Positions 27,048-56,396 of a stretch of DNA of 64,000 nucleotides are shown piece after piece; within the stretch, counting starts at the first letter, position 1, and each line of letters starts with the position of its first letter. The position numbers were made by a program, and so were the translations under genes. The DNA is taken from assembly GCA_034780895.1 (NCBI GenBank), contig JAUZTB010000127.1, forward strand, positions 35,249,869 to 35,313,868. Reading direction: 5' to 3'. This DNA comes from Rhynchobatus australiae. Its lineage: Eukaryota. The notes beneath the pieces were generated by a model. It was not told the DNA's origin. It was given only the letters and a program-made list of their open reading frames with translations, and ran no database searches.

Positions 27048-27077
27048 TCACATCCGCGATCCACGTTCTTGCAGAAT
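27048..27077 (-). CDS. KCTD5: KCTD5 last coding exon
   Basis: ttctcttatag|ATT CTG CAA GAA CGT GGA TCG CGG ATG TGA = ILQERGSRM*. Confidence 0.96.
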   Translation of the reverse strand: MLQERGSRM

Positions 27078-30000: not shown

Positions 30001-33000
30001 AGTGAGGAATTCTTGGTGACACTGAACATGTGAACAAATTGATGGATTGGAGTTGGAGTTAGGCCATGTCTTTCAGTCTGGCCATATCAGAGATAAAATG
30101 GCATCAGCTCTCCTCACTTTCTGCTTCCAGCCTGAAATATAAGGTTTTTCATATTTCTTCAATTCTGAAACCCTGAGTCACAGGCAGCAACACAAACTAA
30201 AGGCCCATTGTAGGTCGGATATGATGGCAGAATATAGTATTAATGGTAGGACTCTATGCAGTGTGGAGGATCAGAGGGATCTTGGGGTCCGAGTCCATAG
30301 GACTCTCAAACGTTGACTCTGTGNNNNNNNNNNNNNNNNNNNNNNNNNNNNNNNNNNNNNNNNNNNNNNNNNNNNNNNNNNNNNNNNNNNNNNNNNNNNN
30401 NNNNNNNNNNNNNNNNNNNNNNNGGTTTAAGGTGCTGGGGAGTAGATATAGAGGAGATGTCCGGGGAAAGTTTTTTACTCAGAGAGTAGTGAGTGCGTGG
30501 GATTGGCTGCCGGAAATGGTGGTGGAGGCGGATACGATAGGGTCTTTCAAGAGACTGTTAGATAGGTACCTGGAGCTAAATAAAATAGAGGGCTATGGGT
30601 AAGCATAGTAATATCTAGGGTAGGGACATATTCGGCACAGCTTTGTAGGCCAAAGGGCCTGAATTGTGCCGTAGTTTTTCTATGTTCTAACAAGCATCAA
30701 TGGATGCAATTCAGGTTGTGGAGTTGCTGTGTGGGGCCCATAGTGACGAGGCAACATAATGCTTGTAATTGTCAATATTTCAGCAACATTTTGTACTCAG
30801 TCTGATACAGTTGACAACAGGCACTTCGTGGTATTTTACAGAAGCTCTCTAAATCAAAGAATGCTCTCCTAAGGTTGAATGTATCAAATATCTCTGCTCG
30901 TAGTACAGCAGAGCATGTAACAGCAGGGTAACACACAGCACAAAACTGTACTACCAGGCAGCAAGCATCCAGGCTGGTCAAGGGCAGGGCAGAGCAAGGC
31001 AAATGACAGTTAGGGTCACGGATGGCAACTCTACAGAGGCAAGGGCAAACTGAGGGGAACTGAGAGGATCTGTGCTTTTTCCAACGGATCACTCGTGCTC
31101 ACCGGTACATTTTATTTCAAATTAATCTGAGTCAATCATATCGTAATCCGTTTCTTCATCGTCGCTCTGGATTCAGCATGCAGCATGCAGAAATGTAAAC
31201 AGGAAGGAAGACATTGTTGTAGGCAATAGTTTCCGAACTCTAGTCAAGAATGTCAGCAACAGGAAATGTAAAAATAAATGTGCTCAAATAAAATAGTGGA
31301 AAAAGATTAGCAAAAGGTTACCTCATCTGCTATTTTCACAAATTTGAACTCCAATAATCCAAAACCATCTTTTACAGCTATCTTCTTCTGGAGTTATGGA
31401 CCCATAATGGGATGCCAAGGGAGGTGGTTGCATTCATTATTTCACCCAGATGGAGCATTAGCAAGCCCCTCACTACTCATAGTTCACCTAACACCAAGCT
31501 GAGCTCAGGTGTTTATAAACTTCACCAGGGACCGAGCAGGATGAGAGCAATGTCTGATTTTCCTCACTCCTTGTTCAATGAACACTTTGTTGAGCTTAGT
31601 TCAGTGGGACATCAGGCAGCATAAATTTCTGTGCACCATCTTACTTAAGCACCAATCCCAAAGCACATAAACCACACTGGAGCATATTGTTGACTTGAGC
31701 TTGAAACTTGGAGTCACAACCCAAAACTGGAATGATGGCTCACATTGTAGCTGTTCACTGTTAAGTCTTTGGCAACTGGCTAGAGACATCACTGAGCTGG
31801 AAAATGAACTACTAGCTACAGAACTGCCTTGGGTGGGTTGACATGAAAACACTCCCCTTCCCTCCTACTCCAAATGAGTGGCACAGTTAGTCAATCTACT
31901 GTCTCTCAGTGCCCATGTCCAAGATAAAATCCTGTCTGTGTGTTCACATGTTCTCTCTGTGACCTTGTGGATTTCCTCCTGATGCCCCTGATTTCTCCCA
32001 CATGCTGAAGGTATATGAGTTGGTGGGTTAATTGGCCACTGTAAATTGCCCTAGTGGTAAAATAGATCACATGGAAAATTAGTGGAAGAATGGGGTTGCT
32101 CCAAGTCAGATGAATGACCTCCTACCATGCTCTAAGGAAATATGGAGAGATCACACTGTGAAGGCACTTGCTGCTTCTCTGAGCACTGCAGCGTCATCCA
32201 CTTCCCGAAAGATAAACATTAAATACTCTATTGCGAGATAAAAGCAAACTCTTTCAGGACATCAGTCATGTAATTATATACCAAATTAAATGTACTTTAC
32301 TGAACTAAGGCTGTGGCTATATTGACAGCTAGCCATTCAAGACTAAAAAAGTGCATGGTGATAACACGTTCGGACAGGCACATGGACGTGAAAGGTTAAG
32401 AGGCATTTGAGCCAACACAGGCAAATTGGATTAGTTTAAGATAAGCATCTTGGTTGTCATTGTCTAACTCTAGGATTCTATGACTCTAAAAGTTACTTTA
32501 ATTATTCACTTAGAACACAAGCTGTTAAAACTGCTGCAACAAAAAAGGCACAATAATCTAATTCTATAAATGAATGGACTAATGCTGACCACTGTGATTT
32601 GTGACATTGTGCAGAAATAATCAAAACAGGAAGCAGTGTGAGGTGGTGAATTAGTCAGTGACTGAATGCTCAAATGTGTTCATATAATCNNNNNNNNNNN
32701 NNNNNNNNNNNNNNNNNNNNNNNNNNNNNNNNNNNNNNNNNNNNNNNNNNNNNNNNNNNNNNNNNNNNNNNNNNNNNNNNNNNNNNNNNNNNNNNNNNNN
32801 NNNNNNNNNNNNNNNNNNNNNNNNNNNNNNNNNNNNNNNNNNNNNNNNNNNNNNNNNNNNNNNNNNNNNNNNNNNNNNNNNNNNNNNNNNNNNNNNNNNN
32901 NNNNNNNNNNNNNNNNNNNNNNNNNNNNNTGTCCCTAAGGATTTGATCTGGATAGAGCTTTTTTTATTTTTAACCACCAGTTAGAATCAATGGTAAATAG

Positions 33001-36000
33001 AGTCTACAAATGCTATTGATGGTTGGCGTGGACTTGTTGGGCTGAAGGACCTGTTTTCATGTTGTCTCTCTCTATGACTCCATGATTCTAAATTAACATG
33101 GCTTTAAGATGTTCATCAGGGCATAAGTTGTACCCATATCGGTGCCTGGTTTGGCAAAAGAAGCAAAAGCATGTTTAAAAATCTCTGCAGACAGAGCTCT
33201 GCACTGTTATTGTATGAAAACTATCAGTAGCAACATCGGCAGCAGTGCAACAATGATCTTTGTTAGCGGACTCTCAGCTGGATACATCAGGAATAGACCT
33301 GGCAAAATAACATGGAATGCTCATTTTTTGGCAAGTATAAAGTAATTAATGACTGTTTTCTGTTCACGATGAAAGTTGGAGCATTCCATCCCCTGCATTT
33401 AATGTCTCCATAATGTTCTCTCAGTTGGACTGAGCTATACTGCCCAGACACATGATAAAACCCAACCTAACCATAACATTGGGTCCTCTTGGTTCCCCAT
33501 GCTTGATCAAGAGTGAGCTGTACAGTGGTAGCCATTCTGTGCTGATAACTCAGACCATTTGACATTTCTCCAAACTCATTTTGGTTGGGACTTAAGATTT
33601 ACAACACAGAGTGGGATTAAAAACCACAAAAGCAAGCATTCAGGAAGCTGTATATGATCTCTGTATAATTTCACTCACCTTGGCTTTTTCGCTGGGTTCA
33701 GAATTTGTGCCATAAGGTGTATTATGCAATTCTCTGGAGACCACACAAAGAAATTCAGCCTGATCTTCATTTCCATAGTTGTAGGAAGAACCCATACTGA
33801 CCAGCTGAGAAGAGAGAAGAGAGTGTGTTTAATATATCAAAGAACTGGCATCCAAGCATACATTGAGACATGCAATCAGGGAAATAGTGTGACAAGCTTA
33901 GATGAACGTTTCCCGACTTCCCCAAATTATGAATAACCACCTTCAGCTTTCATCACTTCAAATAAGATATATACAGGCTGTGCTTACAAGAGAGACAAAC
34001 AGCACGAGCAATATGAAAACAGAAGGGAGGGACAGATGTGATGGTTGATGATCCCACTTTCTAGGGTTATAAGTGGTGAAAGTTTCAACAGGAACAANNN
34101 NNNNNNNNNNNNNNNNNNNNNNNNNNNNNNNNNNNNNNNNNNNNNNNNNNNNNNNNNNNNNNNNNNNNNNNNNNNNNNNNNNNNNNNNNNNNNNNNNNNN
34201 NNNNNNNNNNNNNNNNNNNNATTTCACCAATTCACTTTCATAACATGTCCACAGACCACTCTAATAAATGCAAGCATAACACTGGCTAATCCTGAACAAA
34301 CATTGGTCCTTACCGAGAGCATAATCCCTCCAGTTCCTCATATTTCTTTATCTTTCCTTGCCCATTCTCCCCTGCAAACTCTTGCTCCCTTAATTACCTG
34401 CTTCTCTTCAGTCTCCCATCAGTCTCACTACAATGCCTCAGATAAGACAACAAAGCCACAGACTTCAATTCAGTGCATTTAAATTGCTCATTGTTGTCAG
34501 AGGCCAAAGGATGCAGACGGTCAGGGGGAAATAGTTTGTGAAACAAGTTCTGACAAGTGTATACATTAACTACCTTCTCTAAAAATGTCAAGATATGTGA
34601 TATGATCAGTGCAGGCAATGATTTGTGAATTTGGTTGTCACACCAAAAAGTGTTCTAATTGTGGCAGAGGGCAGAATGAGCTAAGCCAGGCTCAAATGTG
34701 ACTGTCTTTGCGATGAGATCAGAACCACAGCTTTTAGTGATTCTGCAAACATCCTCTGCAGCTGTAGAGAGGCAGGGATCCTGTAGTTAAAGGCAGCAGT
34801 GAATGACAGAGGTTGATGCAGCTGACTGGAGTCAATGAGAAGAGTGATGGCACCACACTGGACAAACATCCTATTCGGGAAATGCCAAGTTTCAATTGTG
34901 GTTTAACAAACTGTAAAGTCTAAGAAAATGCTTCCGTCTCAGATCGGACCTATAATTACACAGCCTTTTGTAGCTTCTCCCATTGTTCCAGAGATTTCTG
35001 CCTCAGATCATTTTTCCTTATAGGATTCAGTTCATGATTATTTTAGTCCAAACTTTCCCACAGCTACACAAAGGCTGAGGTAGGATTCCTTAAAAGTCCT
35101 TTGATGGCAGGTCCAGCCTACCCTACTTCACTGTGAAGAGCAACAACAACTGGTCAGGCCCAGCTCACCTCCCAGAGCAGGTCCCGTCCAATTATGAATG
35201 GATGCTCTGACCCATCTCCCCTGCAACAGGTGTTGACCTTTGTTCATGAATGAGAAACCTATCCCATCTCTCTTATGCAAGGGTTGGTGTGTGCTGTAAC
35301 CAACAGCTTCCTATTCTCAGGAGCAAGCCAGTGATCAGGAGTGAGGACCCTGGCATATCAATCCATGCAATGACTGGTTTGTGAGTAGCAGTGGGAATCC
35401 TGGCTCATCTTCTTTGAGTAATGACTGGCCCATGATCTGGAGTTGGCGCTGTGGGTAAATACCTCTTACAGCCAATGTCTGTGATATAGATCGAATATCT
35501 GCCCTGCAGGGGCAGGCCTGAGATCAGGAGTGTGATTCCTTGAATTCTTTCAAGAGTTGTAGTTGTTTTGCTTTACCCATTGTGGTTTGATAGGCGGCAC
35601 AACATAGTGGGCCGAAGGGCCTGTATTGTTCTATGGTTCTGTACGAGGCTTCTGTACAAGAGGAGGCACTTTTTACTATTAATCAGCCAGAATGATCATC
35701 TGGATAAAAATCAAAACTGCAGGTGCTGGAAATCTGGGGAGGTTAAAGAGGAACTTTGAAGATTCCAATGGTCCTCTCTCCCAAAAATTTCCCTAGTTAT
35801 TCCATCAGTTATGTTGCACGTTCCAGATCAGCCCTGGGCTTGCCTGTAATGTGAACTGTAAGGCATCAGCACTTTATGGAACAAACTAAAGCAACCAGTC
35901 TATTCATCTCCATCTTTTTAATGCCTAACGCAGCAAAGGCTGAAAGCAACGTGGCAAACTGGTCTCTGGGTCGCATCCCACAGAGCCCATCGTACTATCC

Positions 36001-39000: not shown

Positions 39001-42000
39001 TCGGGGCCCCAGTTCCCATGCTCCCTTTNNNNNNNNNNNNNNNNNNNNNNNNNNNNNNNNNNNNNNNNNNNNNNNNNNNNNNNNNNNNNNNNNNNNNNNN
39101 NNNNNNNNNNNNNNNNNNNNNNNNNNNNAATGTTTGTAAAAACAGAACCTGTTTCATTACCTGGAGACAGCTGATGATGCTGCCATTCAGCAGCCTTGGC
39201 AAGTTGGGTGTCGTCCATGTAGGAACTGCTGTTTTAATTATTTAGCCCTTCATTAAGACTGGGAGATGTTGCAGGTGTCTGCTGTCAGAAAAAGGGGAAA
39301 ATCTCACACGAAAGTAAATAAAATGATCTGTGACATGCTTGGGATAGAGGACAAGAAGAAAGGCTTAAAATGTGCAATTAGATACAAGGGAAGCATGAAA
39401 AATCAGCATAGTTGCAGTCACCCAGATTGGAGGATTAAAAAACAGGTTAACACTAGAAATGGCTCAGGAGATGGTACTCCCGTGCCACTTGACTACTCTT
39501 GTCTGTCATATGTTGCCAGTACTTGGGCATGAGATTGATCTAGGATTACTTTACACCTTCACTCTTGTTCCCTGTTCCTTTATTTCCGAGCAGTGGGAAC
39601 ATAGAAGAGAGGTCTCTCTTGCCCTGACAGACACACCCCAAGATTGGCTGCAGGGGGTCATTTGCAACAACCTGGAAGTATTTAAGCGTGGCAGATTTCC
39701 TACCTGATTTCCATTTTGTTTGTAAAATAAGTTCTTCACCTTCAGTGTTTTAAAACAAAGTCCTCTTTTTAATAATCTAATGTTGGAGAATGGCAAAAGA
39801 AATCAAATGTTTGTATTTTTTTCTATACAGGAGTTCTGTCAAGCACTTCAGCAACCTGATGGCAAAATTTTTAAAAATTATCTAAAGGTAAGTTGACAAG
39901 AGTGAAAATGTGTGTGTAAATATAGAAATCATATTTATATGGTAGTTATAAATCTTCAACAGATATCTTGCAACCTCTGTTAGTCACAATCACTACTGGC
40001 ACAGTGAAGTTGTTTATCTTTCTCTGAAGCTGTACACCAGGCATTTTATGGGATTGTTGGTACTTGTGGCCATGTATTACCCCATACATATTTGTCCATA
40101 TAAGTTTTTCTCCATATTTCCTTATGACATAAGCTGTTTCAGCCCATCAAATCCATGCTGGCTCATAATGCAATCCCGTTTCCCCCACTCATTCTCTCTC
40201 TGTAACCTATTCTCCCCACATTCCCATCAACTGCCCTCAGGTTCTACAACTCACCAACTCATTAGGGGCAATGTACCTACCAGTGCACCCACCTTGGAGT
40301 CACAAGATCACAAGACAAAGGAGCAGAAGTAGGCCATCGAGTCTGCTCTGCCACTTCACCGTGAACTAAACTATTCTCCCATCTAGCCCCAATTCCCGGC
40401 CTTTTCCCCATATCCCTTGATACCCTGACTGATTAGATACCTATCAATCACCTCCTTAAACACCCCCACTGATCGGGCCTCCACAGCTGTACATGGCAAC
40501 GAATTCCATAAGTCCACAACCCTCTGGCTAAAGAAATTTCTCCTCATCTCTGTTTTAAATGGGTACCCTCTAATTCTAAGACTGTCCTCTTGTCCTGGAC
40601 TAACCCACCAAGGGAAACAACTTAGCCACATCTACTCTGTGGGAGGAAACCAGAGCACTGGTTGGAGAACGTGCAAACATAGACCACCAGAGGTCAGAAC
40701 TGAACATGGGAGCTAAATCCGTGAGGCAGAAACTTCACCAGCTGCACCATTGCTGCTGTCACAGCTGAGCTCAAACTCAACGACCAACTCATCCTTTCCT
40801 GGATACCAGAATTAGCTGCCCAGGAATTATTCTCCTCCCAGTAGACCAAGGAGGCTAATTGGGAGCATCTCCCTCCAGTTGCCTTCTGCAGTAAAATATC
40901 TCAGCACGCTAAACTTTGAGTCTCTAGTTCAGTTCATTTGGTAATTGGTTTATTATTGTCACACTGAAATATAGTGAAAATCTTTTGTTTACACACCCTC
41001 CAGACAGATCATTCCATACATAAGTGCATTGAGGTAGTACTAAAACAATGCAGAGTATAGTGTTAGTTACAAAGAGAGTGCCGTGCAGGTAGACAAAGTG
41101 CAAGGGCTATGACAAGGTAGATTGACAGATGAAGAGTTCATCTTTAGCATACAAGAGGTCTGTTGAAGTCTTATAACAGCAGGACAGAAGCTGTCCTTGA
41201 ACTGATGATGTGTGTTCTCGCTTCTCCCCTCTTCATGGGAGAGAGAAAAGAGAATGACCAGAGTGGGAGGGGTCCTTGATTTCATTGGCTGCTTTCTTGA
41301 GGTGCTTTTCACAGGAGATTAAGGTAGAGAAGCCGGGGTAGGCTATTCACCACTTCACACCTGGTCTGCCATCTGGGTACATACAGCTGTTGCAACTCTC
41401 CACCAAAGGTCAGAAACAAGAATGTAAAAACAAAACAGCATCCATCTTATTCAAACAGACTACAACACTACCAGCAAATCCTACCATGTTTCATATCCAA
41501 ATGCCAGGAAATATTTGAAATAGCTTTGTATTAGATAAACCATTTGGAATTTTAGTTTGCAAGGAATATCATGAGAAGTGTTAGTTTAGATATTTGGTCA
41601 CTGGAGAGTATACAGAAGCAGTCTAAAGCACTGTGGGCGGCAATACTGTCTTGCCCTTCATGACATTTCTTTGCATGATTGGGCCAACATACAACTTAGT
41701 TCTTTCCTACTAATTGAGAACAGCTTTACAAAAACAGCAAAACAGTAAACAGCCAAGGGCATGCCAGGTGCACAATGACTAAACAGGTTCTGACATAACA
41801 GAAAAATGCAGAAACTATTGCCAAGCAATTTTCCCCAGAGACAGATCAAGCAGAGTTCACTAACCAACCTTTCTATTGAGAACAACATTAACCCCACATC
41901 AGCCATGCTTCAGCTTCAAGGATGTTGGTATTCATTAAGGTGGAAAAGGGCAGTTTAACTCAAATAGACTCAGCATTGAAAGAGGGAACTCAGGCACATT

Positions 42001-45000
42001 ACTGAGAGGAGGAAGTTTTCACATGGATGTACATAGCAATCGTAAGTACTTCAAGAGGGAGAAAGCCAGGTGTTTCAAGTGGGATGCTGATCTTATGAAG
42101 TCTTTCCACCCAGAAATCCTCTCTTCAGAAGTAGATGGAATTAACTGCCCTAATTGACCCAGCATCCTGGTTCCCTAATTTCTTAAGTAAAAGCAGAAAA
42201 TACTGGAAACACTCAGCAATTTGACAGTATTTGTGAAAACCTAAATAATATCTGAAGAAGCTTTTTCTGATGAAATATTAACTATTTCTATTTCCGCATA
42301 TGCTACCTCCCTGGCTAAATATTTCCAGAATTTTCATTTCAGATTTTCAGCAGGTTTTTGTTTTCTTATTTTTATTCACTAATTTCTTCTCTGCTGACAT
42401 TATCTTGTTTACTTAGAACAGTTGTGGAAGGCAGCAGTTGCTGGCCTTCCTTTCCCTCCAATCGGGCAGAGGAGTGTGGAGTGATTGGACATCTGTGCAG
42501 AGGTGCTGCCCCCAGATCAGCTTTAACAGAAAGCAAAGTTTGGACAGAGCTTTAGCTTCTGTCAAAGCTGACACATATTTTAAGCTTTTACATGATTCTG
42601 ACATTAAGAAATTTAAAAGCTATTATATTTGAAATAAATAATTCAACAAAAAAATTTATAAAGCTTTGCCTTCTCATAGGTTATGAATCAGCCGGGGATT
42701 TCAGATTCTTTCAACAGGTTTAACTGGCATAGGGCATGAAGAGGTGACTTCCTTCCAATATTTTCACATGATGTAGATCCCCCTTCAATAACTTGTTAAT
42801 TTAGAGGAACGGAGTTGACGACATAATATTACTCTGTTTCTATTCAGAAATTTTGGCCCAGTTTTTCCTTGTTTTTTTTCTATTTTTGTTTGCTTAGTTT
42901 AGTTTACATTGTTCATGATTTTTTTAATATATTGATTTGGGGTTTATTTTTCTTTTTTTTAAAAATTCATACAATAAATCTTTTTCTTTCCTTTCTTTTA
43001 CACTCTATTCATTAACTAAGAGATCGTTGGACCTTGTTTTTTTTATATATTTTATTGTATGATTATCTAAGACTCGAGTGATATCCTGATCTCTTTGTAA
43101 TACATGTACGAACTTGGATGCTATATACCAATCTGTATTGATCTGTGTATCATGTATATAATCACCGATGTTATATGTATTATTCTGTATTAATTTGAAA
43201 ATTAATAAAAAAAATTGAAACAGAAAGAAGAGATGACATCCCAGCTAATTGCTCAGAATCCCAGCAAGATTGGGCCTCCTTGGATCCCATGTTAAGTACA
43301 GTGACAGACTTAGTGTCCCCAAACTGTCACCAAGTCCTGGAATTGGAGCACATGCTGGCAGTTTCTGTTGGTAGTAGTTAACATAACACTATTACAGTGC
43401 CAGTGACCCAGGTTCAATTCCGGCCGTTGTCTGTAAGGAGTTTGTACGTTCTCCCCACGTCCATTTAGGTATCCTCCAGGTGCTCCAGTTTCCTCCCACA
43501 TTCTAAAGACATACAGGTTAGGAAGTTCTGGACATGCTATGTTGGCAGCGGAAACACGGCAACACTTGTGGGCTGCCCCCAGAGCACATGATGCAAAAGA
43601 TGCATTTCACTATGGGTTTTAATGTACATGTGACTAATAGATAGCTTATCTTAGATTCAGCCCATTAGGTCTGGGGCCAGAGATAAAACAAGGGTGGAGG
43701 AGCATTTTCTTTCACTTGTCTTCATCTGCATTCAAACTGAAGGTGCTACAGAAATTACATCTTCTCTCATCTAGAGATGAATACGATGGATTCTGTTTTT
43801 TTTGGACATCTAATATTTCAAATTAGAGCACGGCAATCTGCATTTATATAGCAGTTTTAACAAAGTAATGTGTCCCAAAGTGCTTCTATATCTGACCTCA
43901 GAAGTACTGTTAGGCCTGGTACTCTTGAAGTATCTTGGATGAATCACTGCAAATAAATTCAAAATCAGTGACAGGCTTTGGAAAAGATCACAGTCTTCAT
44001 TGAACAGTGTCAGAAAATTTATGACAAGAGATTATTCAGCCTATCACATCCATGCTGGTCAAGAAGAGCTATCCATCTTAATCCCACCTGCCAGCACTTA
44101 GTCTGTACCTCTGCAGGTCAAGGTTCAAGTATCGTTTAAATGTGTTGAGGATTTCTGCCTCAACCAGCCTCTCAAACAGCGAGTTCTGGACTCCCACCAC
44201 CCTTTGAGTGAAAAAAATCCCTCATCTTCCTTTTCTATCAGGAGGATTTGAGTACAAGAGCAGAGGCGTTTTGCTCTATTTATATAGAGCCCTGGTGAGG
44301 CTATATCTGGTCTCTCTACCCGAAGGAGGATATAGTTGTAGCAGAAGAATTGCAGCAAAGGTTTCACCAGATTGCTTGCTGGGATGGTGGATTTGTCACG
44401 AGGAGAGAGAGACTAGCCTGTGCTTTGAGTTTCACTAAATTCACTAAAACATACAACAATCCTAAGGGGCTTGATGGTCTGGATACAAGGTGATGCTCCC
44501 CCCTGGGTGGGTTGTTGAGAACCAGGGGAAATATCAGCTCACATCTAGACTATCAAGACAACCTCAAAATAAAGAGTTAGCTATTCAGAGGATAATTAGA
44601 AGAAATTTCTTCACCCAAAGGATGGTAAGCCTTTGGAATGCACTCTCCACAAGGGCTGTTGATGCTCAGTCACCGAGTTTATTCAAGAAACTGATAGATT
44701 TTTAGATAGTGCAGGAAAATACTGTTGTGTTAAAAGAACAGGTGATCTTATTGAATAGTGGAGTAGGAACGAGGGACTGAACTGCTTTCGCCTGCTTCTA
44801 TGTGTTTTGATGTTCCAACCACTTTAAAGCCTATGCTTCTTTTGACCCTCTGTTGAGAGTAATAGGTCCTTCCCATTTATGTAGATCCCCCATAATTTTA
44901 TACATTTTTGTGTCTTCTATTAGGCTTCTCTTTTCAAAGACATGAAGGTTGGTAGATTAATTGGCCACTGTAAATTGCTCCCAGTGTGTAGGTGAGAGGG

Positions 45001-48000
45001 GTAGAATCTGGGGGAAATGATAAGAATGTGNNNNNNNNNNNNNNNNNNNNNNNNNNNNNNNNNTAGTGTAAATGGGTGGTTGATGGTCAGCACAGACTCA
45101 GTGGGCAAAAGGGCTATTTCCATACTGTATCTCCCTATGACTGTAAGGTTAGAATGGAGAAGCTGGAGCTGCTCTCCTTACAGCAAGCAAGGTTGAGAGG
45201 AAATATGATAGAAATGTACAAGATTCTGACTGGCTTAGATGGCATAAATAGAGGAATGTTGTTCCCATGATTGGATGGTTTGAAGTCCAAGAGATATAGT
45301 TTTCAAAATTTGGACAAAAGATATAAAGGGAATGCAAGGGAAAACTTATTCATCCTCTGATTACAAGAATGGTGGAAAAAGAATCAATCACTGCCTTCAA
45401 AAGGGATGTAAAGAGAAACTGCTGGAAGTATTCAACATTAAAAAAAGGGAATTAGTTAGGTTGAGGGTGAATAATTTGCAGGGCTATGGTGAAAGTGAGG
45501 AATAGGAATGATGAAATTGTTCTGAAAAGAGCTGGTATTGACTAGATGGGCCAAATGACTTCTTTTGTGCTCTAATAACTGACAAGATCATCTATATCTA
45601 AAGTTTGCCTACATATTGAAATAACTAGGATCAAGACTGGAAGGATTACATCTTGAGAAATCCCCATGAAAAGTTACATGTTGGTAAAATCTTATGAAGA
45701 AGTGCATGATGAATAAGAAATGGACAAGGAAGGTTAGATAAAGCCAAAGTCTCAAAGACCAACCATGGTTGAGGACATAGTGTAGTTTGTCATTCAGAAA
45801 AAAGGCAAGCATGGCCAACATAAGACAATGCACCCAAGCTGATCATTTTCTGGAAAAAAGTAACTCACAAAATATAAATACTCCTTGCACTTAAACTGAT
45901 AGATTGAGTAGACAACTGTAATTAATTTTCTGAAGCATTAGAAAACCAATTGCTCCAACAATTCCAACCCCCCCCCCCCATTGCTCCCCAGCATCCGTCC
46001 CTTGCCCAGTTCCACTCACCACCTTCCTTTCTTATCTGGAGCTCTTTGTTGTCTCCACTGTCACCTAGCAGTCTCTGTTGTCTTCTCCACCCCTCTCTCC
46101 CCCACTTGCCCATCAACACTTCTGCACCTGGATCCATTTATTGCTTACTAACTCCCATGTCATCCCTCCCCTTCACCTCTTTAGATAAGACAAGATATCT
46201 TTATTAGTCACATGTACATCAAAACAGACAGTGAAATGCATCTTTTGCGTACAGCGTTCTGGGGGCTTTATAATGCCTATCTCCTGCTTATGCTCTCAGT
46301 CCTGATGCAGGGTCTTGACCAAAAACATTGGCTATCCCTTTGCCTCTACAGTTGCTACCCGACCTGCTGAATTCCTCCAGCAGTTTGTTTTTTGCTCCAA
46401 ATCCCAGCACCTGCAGTCGCTTATGTTTCCCCCTTCCATCTTTAACCCCATCAATTTCTCCCTCTCCTCTAAATCATTGATACGGTATCTTAGGATCCAA
46501 CAATTTTCACACTGATCTCTACTGAGCACAAGCAACCCTGGGTCCTGATGCAACTCCCTTTTGTGTAATGGAGACTAAATAGCAGGTTAGAGGACCATAG
46601 CCATAGATTATTCTTTATGATGAGCCTTAACCCCTTTGAAACTTGCTTCCCAAAAAGATGCTAGAATGTTAGGAATTGCTGTTCTTAAACTAAATTCATG
46701 TCTGCTATCTTTTAATTATGAATTGCAAATGTAATTTCTTTCAAATCTGTATGGACATTTTCTTGCTTTTGGGTTTCCTCGCCAGTTTCATTCTCATTAG
46801 TCTAGACGTTGAGATCGCTGATTTATAAATTAAGAACACTGCAAACCACTTGAAACATATCTCTACATTGAATTATAAACTTCCATTATTTCTGCAATTA
46901 TAATGAAGGCCTATACCAAAACTTAAAGCTTATATTTCCACTTCCCAGTGGACTCTGTTTATTAATATACCTATTGACATTGTCTTTGATGCTGCTGGCC
47001 TTTGTGACATGCAATATTGTAAAAGCTTGATTTCAGATGATACAGTTCAGAAATATATTTAGAGTTGAATGGATGAAATATGCATATTAAGGTAATCAGT
47101 GCTCTGGCAACATGCCAGAGATCATAACATTCTTCTGTGCATTTTGTCTTCGCTTCCAATTTTCAAGTTTTTGTAAAGTTCATCTTATTCAACAGAGATG
47201 TGAAATGTTAAAAGATCACTTAAGCCATACAAGCAGTCATGTTCTCTCCCAACAGTTCCTTTAATCTCCTGAAGACAACAAATAATCTTTCCAACAGAGA
47301 AAGACTACATTTCTCCATTATTATCAGCAATCATGTGAACATTGAACAAATCAATTTATTGTTCAGCTCTGCACCTGACTAATCCAAGGAACAACACTGA
47401 TATGAAAAGGATGGAATGCAACTGTAGTAGAACATACAGTATGCTGAACATCTCCCTTCATACTGTTACCCTGGTTGACTCCAGGATATTTATTTTATGC
47501 CCTGTACTTAGTCCCATGCTGATGACCCAGCCAAGACAGGGACAACTTTAAACTAAATCATTTCAACAATTAGGTGCTATCCAAGTCTTCAGAAAAATGA
47601 AGAGAATCCAAGGAGGCAACTCATGTAGGACATGAGAATGGGAGGAGTATTGTTGATTAATGGATGTCAAACAAGATACAAGTGAGGACATTCCTTGACA
47701 TATAGTTTTAATTCATCTTTGTTTGATGATGTTGAAGCATCCCAATACCTTGTTCAAGTGATCAGCAATTTGGGGTGGAATATAGATATTCTGATTCAAA
47801 TGTTCCCAATCACATATCCAATGGAGTTCATTTGTACCAATTTGGAGAATTTTATTTTTCTCTCTGGATCATAATGCAGCACTGGCTAAGATTAGCTAAA
47901 TGGGCAGAGGAGGACTGAATCCAGGAACTTCAACCTCCATTATCTCCAGGTGTTAGAATCCAATTACATGTCGCAAAGCAGAAGGATGCTGTCTAGATCC

Positions 48001-51000
48001 ATTAGCTGACAGATCGTAGGAAACAGAAACACTTTGGATACTTTCTACACTACTTAATTAACAACATACACTTTCAACAAAGAAAATTATCACCCTTTGA
48101 AATAATATTAAAATGAGTAGCAATTACAATTTTCTTTAAATTATAAACAGGCATCAACTGTGTATGAAAACCATTCCCCTCTGATCGTCGCATGTCTTCA
48201 TTGCANNNNNNNNNNNNNCTGAACTCCAGAGACGATGCTTCATTATGCCAAAGAGCAAAAGACTGCAGATAGTGCAATCCATCAGTAGGTCAGACAATAT
48301 TTCTGGAGATTACACCAATTCTACCATTGATTTTAACATCAGTTTTCTGTAGTACTCTACACAGACACAGCTCAAAGGAAAGGCAATCATGCAAAGAGAT
48401 GTCAGTAGCTGAAAGATTAGCCCTTACCCTACTGTTCCCCAAGCCTGCTACAGGTTTCACCAACACCATGCAAAGTCAAGATTACTAGTGATAATAGACT
48501 TGCCACATGAAAGACTGTGTTTCCAAATCTGATTTCATAACTTGTTATTTTAGATTTACATACCTTTAATAACTTTAATATTATAGAAAGCAATAGCACA
48601 ATGCATTGAGCATTGCACATAACCATTGTTAAAAAAGTGTGAAAAATGGGTGTAGTCTAAAGATACTGATATCAACACCTACATATCAACATATACAATT
48701 GATATCAGCACAGCACAGAACTGAAACAGTGATGAAAATTGACCTTTCAAAGAATGGAAGATTGAATGCAAAGCAGGTAATGGTAAGAAGCAGGGAGACA
48801 GGTCGTGCATTGTTAGGATGAGCGTGGAGGGTATTACAGGGACAGACCTCACTGCTGCTGCTGTGGAAACTGGTCTCCTCCCCCTTCACTTCCCGCGACA
48901 CAATCAGCAGAAACTCTGACTGATGGCCCCGCCCATAGCCATAGGGGGATCCTATACTGACCAGCTGTAACAACCAGAGCAGAAAATTTGCAATTGGGTG
49001 AATTAAAAGAGTTCTTTCATTTCAAGTTTTCAAAAGGTGTAAATTAAAAACATCTTGTGATTATTAACATTTCAATTACAGTTTCAGTGACACAAGTTTT
49101 CAAAGCGAAAAGAGTGGTAATTACTTAAACTATACACCAGAAATATCGAACCATAAACAAGATCTCTTTATTTAGATTACGGAATGCTGTGTGCTACAGA
49201 ATATCCTGTAACCTGTGGTCATTTGATAAGAATCGAGAACCACCTGGTCCACGTAACAAAACATTAATGTATGATGATTGCAGTGTTGATATCTACAGCT
49301 ATTCAGTTGGAGTGTGAGAATTCAGGAATGACGGAGCTAAAGCTCAGGTGGTGGTGTGGAGGGAGTGGCGGCACTGAGGGAGTGGCGGTGCTGTCCCGCT
49401 GANNNNNNNNNNNNNNNNNNNNNNNNNNNNNNNNNNNNNNNNNNNNNNNNNNNNNNNNNNNNNNNNNNNNNNNNNNNNNNNNNNNNNNNNNNNNNNNNNN
49501 NNTCTACCTGATAGAAGAGGAGAAAAGACAGAAGGGCCTCCATTTAAACCAAAATAGTACAAGGCCACAATGACTCATGTTGCAGGGTCAATTCCTGGTT
49601 TGTACTAAATTATCAGATTAATCAAGTCTTTTTAGGATTAGGAAATTAGCCTTCCATCAACTGGAAAAAAAACTGAAAAGACAAGGACAGGATGGGGTTT
49701 GAGTCATGCCACATATAGATGAACAGATTGTAAATACTATTCTTTCATAACATGGCCACCAAGGGATGATACGTTGCAAGAATGAGGAAGGAGTGTCCTC
49801 CAGCAGCCGTGAAGAGAATGAAACAGGGTGGAGGGATTGAAGGCGGGGTGCAAACAACTGTGGAGAAACATGCAGGGTGGGGATCTGGGAGAGACACTGA
49901 GAAGTATTTCCTCAAAAGGAGTTGCTACTTCAAAAGAGCAGAATTGGCGGAATGGAAAATATAGATCAAACATTACTGCACTCTGGGATATACGGTACAA
50001 TATTTGTAAAATGAACAACTCCCCAAGATTTAAAATCATATTATTTAAAATGAAGTCAGAAATTCAACCCTAAAAAATTACAGTTTTCCAACCAAACCAT
50101 TAGAGTTTGCTTAGCTGGCTCAGAAATATTGACCTCAATCTTTAATTGAGTTATCTGAAATTATATTCTCATGAAGCAAATGGAAAATCAGCAGATTAAG
50201 TAACCTTAGATACATTTGGTTATATAAACCCAGACTTAAAGCTTGAATTGTGCAAGAGATTCTGGGGATCAGGAAACAGCAGCTGCCAGGAGAAAATTCT
50301 TGGATTTGCGAGATTTAAACAATCATCTTTGGCACACTTGGTCAGAGACCAAGTGATGTAAACAAAGCCAGAAATTCTACTGACAGGGAATGTGTAGTCT
50401 TACGCTTGCTCAGATGAGGTACTACCTTTCTCACTTGTCAGGCTATTTTCCTAAAAAAAGTCAAAGCAACACATGCATGAGACACACTAAGGGTTTCTGA
50501 GAAATGCAACTGGACACCATGTAAAAGCAAGCCTGGTTTTCTGTAATTATAGCATTTAGGTGCAGTAGGCNNNNNNNNNNNNNNNNNNNNNNNNNNNNNN
50601 NNNNNNNNNNNNNNNNNNNNNNAGTAGGCTGAGATGGAAAAAGGAGCAAGGGTAACATAGCCTGAGATGACAGTCCAACACATTGACTTTATTCTCTATT
50701 CTCCTTATACTGTAATTTGCACATTGTTTGTGTTAACAGGTATTGCTGTAATTGCACTTTCCTGCCAGTATTAGCGCTGCTGGTCCATTATAAACATAGG
50801 TATGAAAGATTACAAATGGAAAATGTGGATACAGCTTGTATTGTTTTCATACCTCTTCTCCAAAACTAGACAGCGAAATAATGCAGCAACTTAGTTATGA
50901 TTTCCAATGAGAACTGAGAGTTTTCTAGGGTTTAGCCCTAACATTCATTGTCAGTAAAATGTGATAGATCTAAATTACAGTTAAGAAAATTGAAATTATG

Positions 51001-54000
51001 CAATCATAAATGCATTGTCCAGATATACTTCTAATCGCAGGNNNNNNNNNNCGCAGGAGTGAGGACTGCAATAGTGGAAATATTTTAGTAAAGAATCTTG
51101 CCGTGGAATGGAAGACCAACTGTGTCCCCACTTTAATCACAATAAAAAAAGTTGGGAAGGAATCATTCTGCAACAACTGTAGAGTCTGAGCACTGCCTTT
51201 GTTTATATCACAAGATTTACAAACAGTTTCTGACCAGATTGATTTTAAGTATTCAACTCCAAGTCAGAAATGTTAGTTTCCCAGCTATAAACAATGTATC
51301 AAGAAGTAGTTCAAGAAAATGTCATGCTTTTAATCTGTGTTTGATGCAGCCAACTACTGCTAAAGACACAGGTACCCATTTCTAACAGTGTTATGTGGAG
51401 GACCTAAATGGAAGAGGCTCTTGATTATTTTCAACTACAACATAATTTTTTTGATTTTCAGTTCCACTGAATATCTTAACATTGTTACCTGTTCAAACTT
51501 CCATCCATCAGACATTGTTGACACCATCTGGGTGAGTTCCTCTTCTTGGCACTGTAGCACTCTGTAGACATGTTTCATTGGGATCTAAGGATTACAGGCA
51601 GGAAGAATTGAATTACCTCAAAGACCCACTAAAACAAAATGTTATGGAATACAGTGAACACTGGCAACTTCCAATAATGGGAATAATGTTCATTAAATCT
51701 TCAACTGAGACAAGATTATTAAAAACATAGCTGAAATGAAGATAAACTCACTGGTACAAATTACACCAAGTTTGTGTCTATTTGCATTGTTGAAGAGGCC
51801 TGATATCCATTTAATCCCCTTGAGAACCTCTTCCCACCACCCATCCTCAACTTCCTACTTTCAATCCTAGGTCTCTGTCCTCCTCCCCACCAATCCCTGT
51901 ACATTCAACCCTTAATTTCCAAAACTTCTCTAAGCAAGCAGCAAGGCAATTTAAAAAAGCTGCCAACAGGGAGGAAAATGTGAGTGCATTAGATTCCAGT
52001 TAGGTGTAAATTGGATTGCCCTGATAGCTCAGATGCATGGTGGAATGGATTGGATTTGATGTTTGGGTTCACTAGACTTGTGCAAAAGGCATACTCTTCA
52101 TGTCAACGGTCATTCTCGAGTGGCTAATTATTAAACAGGGATAGTGCATATATTTTCACTGAATGAATTCATTTTGTATCCTTGAAAATAACTGTTTTGC
52201 AATGTAAAGTGACACTGTCAAATAGGTGTATTACCTAACAGACTGTCCAATACCCTGAAAGAATATTTTTGGTTGCAAATTTTCTGCCATATTCTAGTTC
52301 CTTCCAGGATGGTCATCATCACATATGACTAAACAAAGACCTTTTTTATGTTATTCTAATTTCAGTCAGACGTGCATTTCCACCAGGGAAACCTGGAGAG
52401 ATAAACGGAGCAGGAAATCCTGCCCAATTTTCCACTGTCTAATGCAAGAACAGAAGACTATTTAGTAATATTTAAATATCTGCAAGAGGTCTGCTGAGAA
52501 ACCCTGATACAGGCTGAACTCAGCACTTAATCTCACCAAATATGCAGCACAATACCTCTATTAAAGAGTGGAGTTGAGCAGGCTCTGCAGAAGGCAGGCT
52601 GCAGCTTTTCCTGTGCTCTAGGCTGACTTGGCAGTTCCTGAGTAAAATCACTTCTTTAGTACTGTAATCAACACTCATATCAACTGCATTAATCTCCTTG
52701 AGATTTCTGACAGTGACATTTATTTTGTGAACATATTCACTGTGGCATTTTACAAATGAATTTAAAGTGTCGCTATGGCCTTCATATTTAAATGACCACT
52801 ATAAACTAAAAATATTCAACAGATTGGCACTTATTTGCACACTAATTTACACAACAAAAACTCCTCCATCCAGGGTTGAAATCCCAAATACAACTCATAT
52901 TAATGATAAAGTGGTGTTCAATATCTACATAATCTTTTGCTATTTTGTCTTCTACTTCTCACCGTCTATTCTTTGCACGAAAGGCTCAGAAATATGGGTT
53001 AGATATTTAGTCATGAAGAAAATTTGGAATATATGGGGGAAATATATTTTTTTAATTCTCTAAGTTCTCTAAATCTGATCTCTTTCCAGGGAAAGTTGCT
53101 GGTATTTAATATTAAATTTTGGGCCATAGCATTGTTTTACCCCATTTATTATAAACACAAACTGAAAATGATGGAAATACTCAGCTATCAGGCAGCACAT
53201 TTGGAGACAGAAATTCAGTTAATGATTCAGGATGATGACATTTTGGAAGTAAACTTAAAGGTTGCAGAGAAGGGGAAGAGAGAAGGGAGACAACAAACTG
53301 GAATTCTGTAATAGGGTGGAGACCAAGAAAGAGGTGACTGCGAGAGAATAGTGAAGGTTTGTTAATTGCAGCTGATCAGTCTGGAGGTGTTACAAGAAGG
53401 TGACTGAAAATAGAGAAGAAAAGGAGAAAAATAAACAACATCTAGAATTAAAAAATATGAAACACCACTGATGTTGGAAATCTGAAATAAAACAATGCTG
53501 GAAATACTCAGCAGGTTGGACAGCAACCGTGGGGAGAAAAATAAAATTAACATTACAGGTTGACAGATTTTCCCGCATTTAACTAAGGGTTTTTGTGCCT
53601 CAAGAATCCTGCATTATGTGAACATTTCTTAAAGGGCTGACAGCCTTTCCATGATCGGTTTTGAAAAAAAATTCATTTTGGTACCCAGTGCTAAGAAGTT
53701 GGTGTGAGCGGTGGACAAGTGGTGGAGAAGTAGCAGCGGCAGACAGAAGTTGCTCACTGACCCATGTTTACAGATCAGGATCAGAGTGGATCTGGTTCAT
53801 TGACTCGTGATCGCTGGTTGGTTCTGCCCTGCTGGTTTGTCAGTGGGAACTTGCAACTGTCCCTGGGGTTGCTCCCCATGCAGTGATGTCATTGCACAAA
53901 TGCCTATTCCCAAGTACACAGCTTACAGTCTGATGCCACTGTACTTATGCCAATTGTTCTCAAGATGGTGGTCTGTTGCTGGGCGGTGGTGTACAGCGAG

Positions 54001-56396
54001 TTTCTTTGGGTCCTGTTGTTCCAAGTTAATCAGTGAAGATATCCCAGTGAGACTGGCCATCAGATCCTGCTTTGTTTTGTTTGAGATTGTACAGTGAGTA
54101 GTGAAACATGCAACCCACCCTTCATTGTTGTGAGTGACATCTTTGTGAAGCGAAGAATTATATTAGATAAAACTTCTTGTTATAGTGAATGTTCGATTGT
54201 TGGGGGACAGCTACATTGGATTCAATAGACTTGATTGTGTCAGGTATGAAGATGAGATTCTACTACTTGGGTTTATGTTGGTCTTCAATGCAACTTGAGG
54301 ATTGACATTCTGCAGCGTTTGGGTTCTCCAATGTAGAAGTGACAACATCAAGAGCACCAAATGCAGTACACCAGATTGCATGTGGTACAAGTGAATTGAT
54401 GTTTCACTTGAAAGGAAGATTTGATTCATGGATGGGAGGCTGTGGTTGCATGGAAAGGTGCTGGAAAAAGGTGACTGGGTATTGGTAACCTAACTACTCC
54501 CTGGCAGTTCACACTTATATTTTTCCAGTGTTGTGTAGGAAACAAATTGAGAAACTGAGGTTGATATTTATCTACTGAATTACAATGGCAAGACCTACAA
54601 AGTTCCAGCTTAGATCAGCTAGCTCAACATGGCNNNNNNNNNNNNNNNNNNNNNNNNNNNNNNNNNNNTGCAATTACACTTTATTTTTCACTCAATTGGT
54701 TGCTGTTCCTTCACTGTTGTTGGGTCAAAATCCTGGAACTCTCTCCCCAACAGCTTTATGGTTATACTCACTGTTGAAGGACTGCAGATGTTCAAGAAGG
54801 CAGTTCACCACCACCTTTTAAAGGGTAATGAGGGATGGGAAATTAAATGCAAGCTCAGCCTGTTAAGTCCACATCCCTTGAATGAATATAAACAAAAATA
54901 ATAGTGACACAGAATTACTGCTATTATAACTACATATTTTGGTATGAACAGCTGGAGTGTCTACTCATTCTGTGAAACTTGGGGCTGTGGAAAAGCATAG
55001 AAATACAAGTGCCATGAACACAAATTAGAAGCTGGTATGCAAGTACAAAATACAACCTAAAAATCAGATAGAATCATTTAGTCCCAGCAGCCTGCATTAT
55101 AAAAGCAATGCTAGACCATTTGTGAGTGAAATCAAACAGCACTTTTCACACGAACAGTAGAGGTAGTCAGGAGCCCCTTCCCCAACGGCCTGTAAATTTA
55201 AGCTAATAAGACCGAGGTGGATAGATTTTGTTTTTTGTTGGGCAAAGCTATGAAAGTATTGAAATCAAGATTTGGCTGGGGAGGGGTGGTTTACAGGGGC
55301 AAAAGGCAGCAAGATACAGATTAGCCATAATATAAAAACCTAAACTGGCACAGGGAATGATAGTGTCTGTTTGTTCCAATGTTCCTCATGAAAATGCAAT
55401 ATTGTAAAACAACTTTAGAAGAACCAATAACAAAAGACTAAATTTGACCGCTCTTCAGGATTGGCGGTGCTGAACAAGCTCCAGGCATCCATCTACAACA
55501 CAAACTTGCCATTATTGGGAATACAGTGTCTTCAAGACTAGTGTCAGCCATGCCTGGTGGGAAATACTCTTACTGAGTCAGAAGGCTGAAAATCTAGTCA
55601 GTGTTGTAATATTGAAATTGCAGTAGCTATTTTGCACACAGCAAGGATAATGGCAGGATTTTTATTTTCAGCTATATGGCTTGAGAGTTCCATATTGGCC
55701 AGGATGCCTGGGTTATATTCATGTGCCAAACGTGGGACTCGAATCTGCAAAATTAGAACTATAAAATACCTTGGGATGCCCAGAAATGGGCATGAAGATC
55801 ACCACAAAAATACAAGTCTTTCTTTAACCACTTGGACTTCTTGTTCCCAACCTCTCTCCACCAGTCCTCAAGGATAATTTCACATCTTTGGATCAGGTCT
55901 CTTTTCACTCACCTGTGATGTTTTGGTGTCTCTTTCTCTTATCCTGTCTTTCACTAACTTTATTAGTGATGTGATGTTGTAAAACTCTGCTTCCTCCAGT
56001 ACACCTGAAAGGATCAAAACAATAATGAAGTATTTTAAACCATAAACCTGGAGAATTTCATAAGTTCCTTATAATCACTACTCAATTCTCAACTCTTGGG
56101 GTGAACAGTTTTAAAATACTGCTCTTTTACTGACACACAAATTATGTAATTATGTCATATCTGAAAGCTGCCTCAGAATAATGTCACAGGCAGACCAAGC
56201 AAGAATTTAGTCAAACTCAAACCAAAGCTGAAATGAGTTTGATCAATCATAAATTAAACAAAAGCTGAAGGTGCACTGAAGACTTGCCTTCTTCTGCTAA
56301 ATCTTTATTAATAACCAGCTTCCCATGCCGCAGGTAGTTCAGGATTGGGCCAAAATAGGTGGGATCTCGGTCTATTAGATAGGCACCAGTATCATC
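27048..56396 (-). CDS. KCTD5: KCTD5 (BTB/POZ Cullin3 adaptor), 5'-partial CDS: join(56288-56396,55913-56004,51489-51584,33679-33804,27048-27077)
   Basis: Spliced translation [150 protein letters not shown]. The segments [16 protein letters not shown] and HNTPYGT fit KCTD5 rather than KCTD2 or KCTD17. Confidence 0.93.
30215..30690 (+). mobile_element. Relatively young CR1 spanning a 100-N gap
   Basis: [50 protein letters not shown]; CpGs retained. Confidence 0.9.
31122..31166 (-). CDS. KCTD5: Putative KCTD5 alternative C-terminal exon (exon 31103-31166) encoding [14 protein letters not shown]
   Basis: Polypyrimidine tract + TGCATGCTGCATGCTGAATCCAG|AGC GAC GAT GAA GAA ACG GAT TAC GAT ATG ATT GAC TCA GAT TAA. 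Donor CCG|GTGAGC at 31102, local CpG retention, in phase 0 with exon 5. Confidence 0.6.
   Translation of the reverse strand, partial: SDDEETDYDMIDSD
31875..32150 (+). mobile_element. Decayed tRNA-derived SINE
   Basis: GTGGCACAGTTAG head; GTTCTCTCTGTGACCTTGTGGATTTCCTCC...TTAATTGGCCACTGTAAATTGCCC. Confidence 0.7.
33679..33804 (-). CDS. KCTD5: KCTD5 canonical exon 5 (5b)
   Basis: tctcttctcag|CTG GTC AGT ATG...GCC AAG|gtgagt; 126 nt; [42 protein letters not shown]. Confidence 0.96.
36330..37480 (-). mobile_element. Penelope-like element (RT + GIY-YIG endonuclease remnant)
   Basis: ORF 36358-36600 [19 protein letters not shown]...[16 protein letters not shown] aligns to the PLE motif FTCxSxNxVYxIxC..YIGETxRxLxxRFxEH; upstream RT-like [14 protein letters not shown] segments. 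Confidence 0.75.
38839..39028 (+). mobile_element. Tc1/mariner (Tigger/pogo-like) MITE, left part, truncated by a gap
   Basis: TA|CAGTAAAACTCCAATAATCC terminus; internal sequence shared with the copy at 58442. Confidence 0.65.
40300..40637 (-). mobile_element. CR1 3' fragment nested inside a minus-strand SINE (SINE halves ~40130-40299 and 40638-40750)
   Basis: [30 protein letters not shown]; (TCTTGTGA)2 tail; the flanks rejoin to the SINE body TTGGAG^TGTGGGAGGAAACC. Confidence 0.85.
40930..41305 (-). mobile_element. Rex1/Babar LINE 3' end
   Basis: Same tail as the 14470 element (TTGGTTTATTATTGTCAC...GTGCATTGAGGTAGTAC); [12 protein letters not shown]. Confidence 0.8.
42770..43225 (+). mobile_element. 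L1-like LINE 3'UTR with A-rich tail
   Basis: T-rich UTR ending TTGAAAATTAATAAAAAAAATTGAAA. Confidence 0.45.
43372..43655 (+). mobile_element. tRNA-derived SINE, second family (tail GATGCATTTCACT...GTACATGTGACTAATA)
   Basis: B-box GGTTCAATTCC; the reverse complement of the same tail occurs at ~46185-46265. Confidence 0.8.
44030..45580. mobile_element. Cluster of CR1 3' fragments (both strands) and a SINE 3' half (~44930-45140)
   Basis: [51 protein letters not shown]. Confidence 0.8.
45930..46430 (+). mobile_element. Penelope-type terminal repeat with a degenerate hammerhead-like core
   Basis: C-rich tract, then CTGATGCAGGGTCTTGACCAAAAACATTG...CGACCTGCTGAATTCCTCCAGCA; interrupted by a SINE tail. 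Confidence 0.6.
48848..48964 (-). CDS. KCTD5: KCTD5 alternative (duplicated) exon 5a
   Basis: gttacag|CTG GTC AGT ATA GGA...AGT GAG|gtctgt; [39 protein letters not shown] aligns without gaps to canonical exon 5; 117 nt, phase 0-0. The 3' boundary is uncertain because the frame stays open to 48686. Confidence 0.8.
51489..51584 (-). CDS. KCTD5: KCTD5 exon 4
   Basis: cttag|ATC CCA...GAA CAG|gtaaca; 96 nt; [32 protein letters not shown]. Confidence 0.96.
55913..56004 (-). CDS. KCTD5: KCTD5 exon 3
   Basis: tttcag|GT GTA CTG...TCA CAG|gtgagt; 92 nt; [30 protein letters not shown]. Confidence 0.96.
56288..56396 (-). CDS. KCTD5: KCTD5 exon 2 (BTB domain), ends at a GC donor
   Basis: gcag|GAT GAT ACT...GAA GAA G|gcaagt; 109 nt. 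Confidence 0.95.

Follow-up and report, generated by a model that had tools for sequence, protein, structure and literature searches.

A conserved duplicate of exon 5 in KCTD5, very probably an optional cassette that may displace the Gβ-binding tail

KCTD5 is a CUL3 adaptor that sets the level of free Gβγ and thus tunes GPCR signaling. The 3′ part of its gene lies on the minus strand of the 64,000-nucleotide stretch of the Rhynchobatus australiae genome analyzed here (contig JAUZTB010000127.1; hereafter, the window), where the fourth intron contains a second homolog of exon 5. We term this homolog exon 5a and the canonical exon 5 exon 5b. The locus raises the question of how two versions of the same exon are used, and what the presence of the duplicate would do to the protein.

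The encoded protein follows the architecture of the CUL3-adaptor family, a BTB domain followed by a three-stranded G-protein-binding domain and a terminal helix. It matches human KCTD5 in phmmer with an E-value of 1e-119, human KCTD5 structures are its top fold matches, and the closest named protein is P0098 from the sawfish Pristis pectinata. All exons are on the minus strand. Exon 3 (55913..56004), supported by its sequence, its splice sites, and tblastn with P0098, encodes the BTB domain's end and the linker. Exon 4 (51489..51584; 96 nt) encodes the first strand and helix of the C-terminal domain and the start of its strand 2, including the equivalents of human R159, L161, E167, S173, D177, and W179. 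Exon 5b (33679..33804; 126 nt) equals human L184–K225 by alignment to human KCTD5, and the coding part of exon 6 (27048..27077) supplies ILQERGSRM and a stop codon, forming the end of the Gβ-binding switch helix. A 64-nt alternative exon with its own stop (31103..31166) would replace the basic terminal helix with an acidic end. Exon 1 was not found by tblastn with P0098 in the window or in the adjoining 19.8 kb.

Exon 5a, the optional duplicate ahead of 5b, occupies 48848..48964 on the minus strand and encodes 39 residues in 117 nt. It opens in the same way as 5b (from 48964 and 33804, respectively, both with cag|CTGGTCAGTAT), ends at 48848 in the donor GAG|gtctgt, and contains neither stops nor frameshifts. 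Its first 81 nt share 51 bases with 5b and encode 27 residues, of which 16 are identical between the exons, with nine codons differing synonymously and 11 non-synonymously, and the first five residues are nearly the same; the last 36 nt (12 residues) are unrelated, with 7 of 36 positions matching. A tblastn search of the window with 5a returned 5b at an E-value of 8.6e-8 and its next match at 1.0, and the pair forms the only direct repeat of at least 40 nt in 33600–51700. The similarity is far above chance, and the similar lengths (117 and 126 nt) and common phase (0/0) are those of homologous tandem exons. In all of these details, the initial annotation of a second in-frame exon 5 homolog in intron 4 holds. 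Of the range that it gave, the start at 48964 stands, whereas the other end, 48686, proves to be the stop codon of an unspliced read-through frame. This frame stays open for 53 codons beyond 5a (48847–48686, minus strand), and a few models from other species end in this way; the intron just 3′ of 5a is uncovered by all four sequencing runs described below, which speaks neither for nor against read-through.

Contigs from four sequencing runs of relatives (X1, X2, X4, and X16, from four studies) were laid over positions 48500–51700. These are contigs with no tissue labels rather than raw reads and lose rare variants, and a minor form joining 5a to exon 6 could escape in them. Their RNA nature is guessed: none of the 24 runs listed is recorded as RNA, 20 were guessed to be so, four of these were used, and X1 carries a flag as probable DNA, even though its contig connects exon ends with no intron between them. 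In all four runs, the 5a contig leaves the exon at 48848 and runs on into 28 letters that match the start of 5b better than anything else in the 64-kb window. The extensions agree with the first 28 nt of 5b at 28, 24, 24, and 23 of 28 letters, compared with at most 14 for exon 6 or the alternative exon at 31166. This joint is read from loose contig ends, as no single contig alignment spans exon 4 to 5b, and contig depth was not taken as a level of inclusion. At its upstream end, the 5a contig enters exon 4 in three of the four runs (X1, X2, and X4) and the upstream intron in X16. The exon 4 contigs of X1, X2, and X4 stop 11, 7, and 7 letters into exon 5, at the point where the two copies part, the outcome predicted by use of both routes, and in X16 exon 4 is joined to 5b-type letters. 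Together, the X16 junction and the stops at the divergence point indicate that skipping of 5a also occurs. A further X1 contig of 198 nt and low depth (50120–50318) is intronic, between exon 4 and 5a, and possibly represents unspliced RNA or DNA.

The same arrangement is found among 345 proteins. Exon 5a is present in 216 of them, for the most part automatic models that were retrieved with 5a itself and are related to one another, hence not independent. Of these, 181 go on to 5b (176 in frame); the other 35 continue elsewhere, mostly into intron. A joint from 5a to exon 6 or to an exon of the 31166 type occurs in none of the 216 jawed-vertebrate 5a proteins and in none of the four runs. Another 118 proteins pass directly from exon 4 to 5b, and long and short models coexist within one species in Pristis (262 and 223 residues), Trichosurus (275 and 236), and Trachemys (270 and 231). 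Forms with and without the exon, a length divisible by three, and a conserved peptide with conserved flanks are the features of a frame-preserving cassette. We conclude with high confidence that 5a is an optional in-frame cassette added before 5b, giving a tandem half-domain repeat.

Some models depart from this pattern at the 5b boundary. In models from Narcine (P0023, P0133, P0137, P0138, and P0139), and in P0348, which has the same shifted C terminus, 5b is entered out of frame; the shift, from 5a or from exon 4, suggests a second acceptor or an annotation quirk there. The 5a–5b junction of two mormyrid KCTD5-like models (P0176 and P0178) is shortened, and the first 5b residue is dropped. 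The motif TGCATG does not occur in the 300 nt on either side of 5a, where splicing-factor motifs were counted without a background.

To what extent is the duplicate conserved? A search with the 5a peptide matched 75 proteins among 82 candidates. The exon occurs in automatic models, often labeled "isoform X1," from chimaera, sharks, rays, bichir, sturgeons, gar, bowfin, and teleosts, and likewise in lungfish, coelacanth, amphibians, turtles, birds, marsupials, and echidna. We aligned 77 distinct 5a peptides, one of them an aberrant model. Within the strand, E17, L20, I21, and V22 are invariant, and S23, R24, E25, and V26 are nearly so. The preceding loop varies and is four residues shorter in 31 of the 77, with length changes in whole codons, and the last ten residues vary freely. 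Of four changed 5a codons listed for the related runs, three are synonymous and the fourth restores a common Asp. Comparison of these peptides shows strong protein-level constraint on the strand residues and, with the mostly synonymous changes and the spread of models from chimaera to echidna, agrees with the initial description of an old, selected duplicate. The flanks are conserved as well. The acceptor region (48965..48994, minus strand) has a pyrimidine tract that is not clean, with a like stretch in other vertebrates, and 31 of 33 proteins that read the upstream intron share one seven-residue pattern there. The donor gtctgtcc (48840..48847, minus strand) is non-consensus and conserved in relatives; 31 of the 35 5a proteins that do not enter 5b read Val-Cys at this site.

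Lampreys and hagfishes carry a 5a-type exon in a different setting. In Lethenteron models and one unnamed Logan protein, it is joined directly to an end resembling exon 6, with no 5b, and a Lampetra model continues past that boundary into the intron. In hagfish models, the 5a-type segment has 39 residues, and the 36 residues after it lack the strands. The cyclostome segments score higher against a 5a profile than against a canonical one (64.6 versus 45.4 and 57.2 versus 44.9); six control peptides score the opposite way, but these could have entered the training set of the canonical profile. A tree of 67 rows (a random draw of 18 of 62 5a peptides, two cyclostome segments, and 47 canonical segments) groups the cyclostome rows with 5a at 95/100, a value obtained from just 30 columns, with end branches that are long and a bootstrap that had not settled. 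In a search of the genome of the window with the lamprey exon, 5a was the sole exon 5 to match at E ≤0.001. Because a 5a-type exon is present in both lamprey and hagfish paralogs, the duplication likely arose before jawed vertebrates, and these sequence comparisons make it likely that it predates the cyclostome–gnathostome split, roughly 500 million years ago; convergence instead of common origin retains some small probability. The lamprey models without 5b look like fixation of 5a rather than a splice choice. The initially predicted product joining 5a to exon 6 is seen only in such lamprey models, and it has no counterpart in the jawed-vertebrate proteins or the runs above. In the lamprey-type proteins P0395, P0417, P0484, and P0485 and the hagfish proteins P0396 and P0416, the 5a-type exon is the only domain-forming exon 5, and the BTB domain has diverged.

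Elsewhere, the exon appears to be missing. Two paralogous loci in the same genome, presumably KCTD2-like and KCTD17-like, have fourth introns of ≈1.8 and ≈1.0 kb, and neither of these introns contains a 5a-like exon. Exon 5a is absent from 23 placental and 13 squamate proteins picked by name among the matches listed (120 of 1462, with at most 15 members per cluster). Judged from these sequences, 5a was apparently lost in placentals and squamates, and such a loss would make the long form dispensable. The initial annotation had rightly taken 5a to be missing from the human protein, in which the 39-residue segment is absent, and possibly predicted already in fish annotations, as it is. In mouse brain, RT-PCR gave a single KCTD5 transcript, encoding 234 residues, according to the available portion of the report (PMC5469494). 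In two placental models, the insert that follows exon 4 proved not to be 5a. In bat and elephant shrew models, 30 and 41 residues lie between exons 4 and 5, with Val first and Gln last; should they represent complete retained introns (90 and 123 nt), these would leave no room for 5a and its splice sites.

What inclusion of 5a would do can be considered against the structures of human KCTD5 (Protein Data Bank 3DRX, 3DRY, 8U7Z, 8U81, and 8JKB; PMC10348674, PMC11047111), which represent the same gene, with the exon 4 contacts and the terminal helix conserved. All solved chains lack the 39-residue 5a segment, and the alignment splits into two pieces there. As described in the accessible parts of these two papers, the C-terminal domain spans residues 156–209 and its β1, α1, and β3 form the main Gβ groove (PMC11047111); R159, L161, E167, and W179 are needed for Gβγ binding (PMC11047111, PMC10348674); the tail, residues 210–234, makes a second Gβ contact, the removal of which cuts affinity about 10-fold (PMC11047111); and KCTD17 isoforms with longer C termini failed to bind Gβγ (PMC10348674). 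All four of these tested contact residues lie in exon 4 and are conserved in the window. It had been proposed that 5a replaces an acidic NEDQ loop with a basic RGHQ and so switches specificity. This idea has fared poorly: RGHQ is found in 1 of the 77 5a peptides, and position 13 is mostly A or D (A in 39, D in 32, and G in 1). Nor does the NEDQ loop appear as a Gβ contact in the accessible text, where the contacts named are the exon 4 residues, β3, and the C-terminal tail; the main text of PMC11047111 makes no mention of E196, D197, or Y193.

We consider it somewhat probable that 5a, an ancient exon 5 duplicate used as an optional cassette, takes the place of the last strand of the domain, displaces the tail by 39 residues, and weakens Gβγ capture. 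In the long form, the nearer strand, that of 5a, would pair with strand 2 and complete the three-stranded sheet. We favor 5a for this position because selection keeps its strand and because cyclostome models use a 5a-type exon alone. The main Gβ site, mostly from exon 4, would survive, and the displaced 5b segment with an acidic linker would separate the domain from the basic switch helix. With the Gβ-binding tail moved 39 residues outward, capture would likely be weaker, by analogy with the longer KCTD17 tails. Since long and short subunits share one BTB domain, they would be expected to mix in pentamers, and adding 5a would tune Gβγ ubiquitination like a dial rather than swap the substrate. 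One structure prediction is compatible with the 5a strand in this position: a ring of one domain built from exon 4 and 5a, without 5b, and four short-form domains scored 0.55, compared with 0.00 for the best of three controls, a result for which a similar solved complex exists and memory of it may play a part. Its runs agree in at least 89% of contacts, and partner pLDDT is at least 59. At the mark applied to such predictions, 51 of 78 solved pairs pass, as do 2 of 108 mismatched ones; for eukaryotes, the corresponding counts are 39 of 65 solved pairs and 2 of 126 unrelated ones. Passes at a score of at most 0.60, however, include only 5 of the 78 solved pairs and yet all four passing mismatches of 180.

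The cassette could also be used with a different outcome, in which 5b keeps its place in the domain and the 39 added residues protrude as an exposed insert from the loop that joins strands 2 and 3; the switch helix would stay in register, and the insert would offer a new binding surface on the pentamer. Two AlphaFold2 models of the long form disagree on this point, each following its own alignment. The model from an alignment of long forms only places 5a in the sheet, at an unreliable mean pLDDT of 37.3, whereas a second, with a mean pLDDT of 75.4, places 5b in the domain (strand 228–237) and leaves residues 186–219 disordered (pLDDT <50). The near identity of the first five residues of the two exons likewise allows the long form to be read as a loop insertion. 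The alignment behind the second model is lopsided, however, with 65 rows on 5b only and none on 5a only, so that every short homolog was set on 5b. What is invariant in 5a coincides exactly with its hydrophobic strand, and the 5a-type exon provides the only strand in the cyclostome models, both of which run counter to an exposed loop. We regard this outcome as unlikely, albeit less so than the others considered here. A more doubtful variant treats the two exons as interchangeable strands for one slot in the domain, between which the long form switches, or of which it lends the spare canonical one to a neighboring subunit. If true, KCTD5 would contain a strand-swap switch that engages or releases the Gβ-binding helix, older than jawed vertebrates and lost in placentals and squamates.

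In another reading, the 5a peptide has no positive role, and the exon might be kept mainly for regulation at the RNA level, or to make an unstable or inactive subunit. The conserved, non-consensus flanks are compatible with this reading, as are the divergence of 5a in X2 and X4 from the window, which is no greater than that of exon 4 (5 of 121 versus 9 of 98 letters), and the out-of-frame 5a–5b joint in five Narcine models. Conversely, the frame is kept, so that the usual form has no early stop, and the mostly synonymous changes, whole-codon length changes, and invariant strand in 77 peptides weigh against it; we find this explanation improbable. The mutual exclusivity put forward in the initial annotation, by which 5a and 5b would swap half of the domain, is the least credible, even though the exons are homologous, phase-matched, in tandem, and similarly long, and an end resembling exon 6 does directly follow a 5a-type exon in the lamprey models. 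Unlike the members of a mutually exclusive pair, 5a and 5b are routinely co-included (4 of 4 runs and 181 of 216 proteins), and 5a has no direct joint to exon 6 in 216 jawed-vertebrate proteins. A 15-kb intron with ordinary GT-AG ends poses no steric or spliceosome barrier to their co-inclusion, and the lamprey models show no 5b with which 5a could alternate. We consider such a pair highly improbable. The reading in which 5a takes the last strand of the domain keeps our preference.

Ancient tandem duplicates of a domain-coding exon are also found in the mutually exclusive homologous exons of FYN, PGM1, and CACNA1C (PMC9741552, PMC8373072). Whereas those exons substitute for one another, KCTD5 5a adds to 5b. 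The fates of 5a correspond to the three described in the available text of PMC9741552: the exon is kept in one paralog, missing in two, and apparently fixed alone in a cyclostome paralog. Of two human catalogs of duplicated exons, neither PMC9741552 in its main text nor PMC8373072 in one supplement mentions KCTD. The nearest precedent we found for co-inclusion, from the accessible part of PMC2394523, is the helix 2 duplication of COE/EBF (H2d–H2a), a tandem exon duplication older than the cyclostome–gnathostome split with both copies in one protein; inclusion there is mandatory, whereas that of KCTD5 5a is optional and seemingly lost in placentals and squamates. A close paralog, KCTD17, likewise has C-terminal isoforms in which lengthening after the domain by splicing alters Gβγ binding (available portion of PMC10348674), but its alternative tails are unrelated, whereas 5a duplicates the last strand of the domain itself.

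The literature searched on KCTD5, the coverage of which left out most subscription papers, yielded no description of exon 5a. What is new is the splice pattern of 5a, its history, and the proposed mechanism; the exon itself is already in automatic annotations. Structural work on KCTD5 used the short human form, as far as the available text indicates (PMC10348674, PMC11047111). If the long form weakens or redirects capture, splicing would control G-protein turnover in the fish, amphibians, turtles, birds, echidna, and marsupials whose gene models include it, by a route seemingly missing in placentals. Exon 5a is also a duplicated domain exon kept as an add-on, invisible to catalogs based on human genes.

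C termini matching the alternative exon at 31166–31103 range from sharks to Puma and Papio, with examples among the proteins of fish, amphibians, turtles, birds, lizards, and placentals. Mouse Kctd5 has a 59-nt exon that is rod-enriched and Msi1-dependent, with a percent-spliced-in value of 74 in rods and 17 in olfactory neurons, as given in the accessible part of PMC6952364. We considered this exon, from the ASCOT paper, as a possible earlier description of 5a and rejected it on account of its 59-nt length and its downstream position, given that the forward primer sits in exon 5. By position and size, the exon at 31166 likely corresponds to it. Use of the alternative exon would remove most of the Gβ-binding switch helix together with the C-terminal SRM, a tripeptide that has been tested as a weak peroxisomal signal, according to the available text of PMC8919083.
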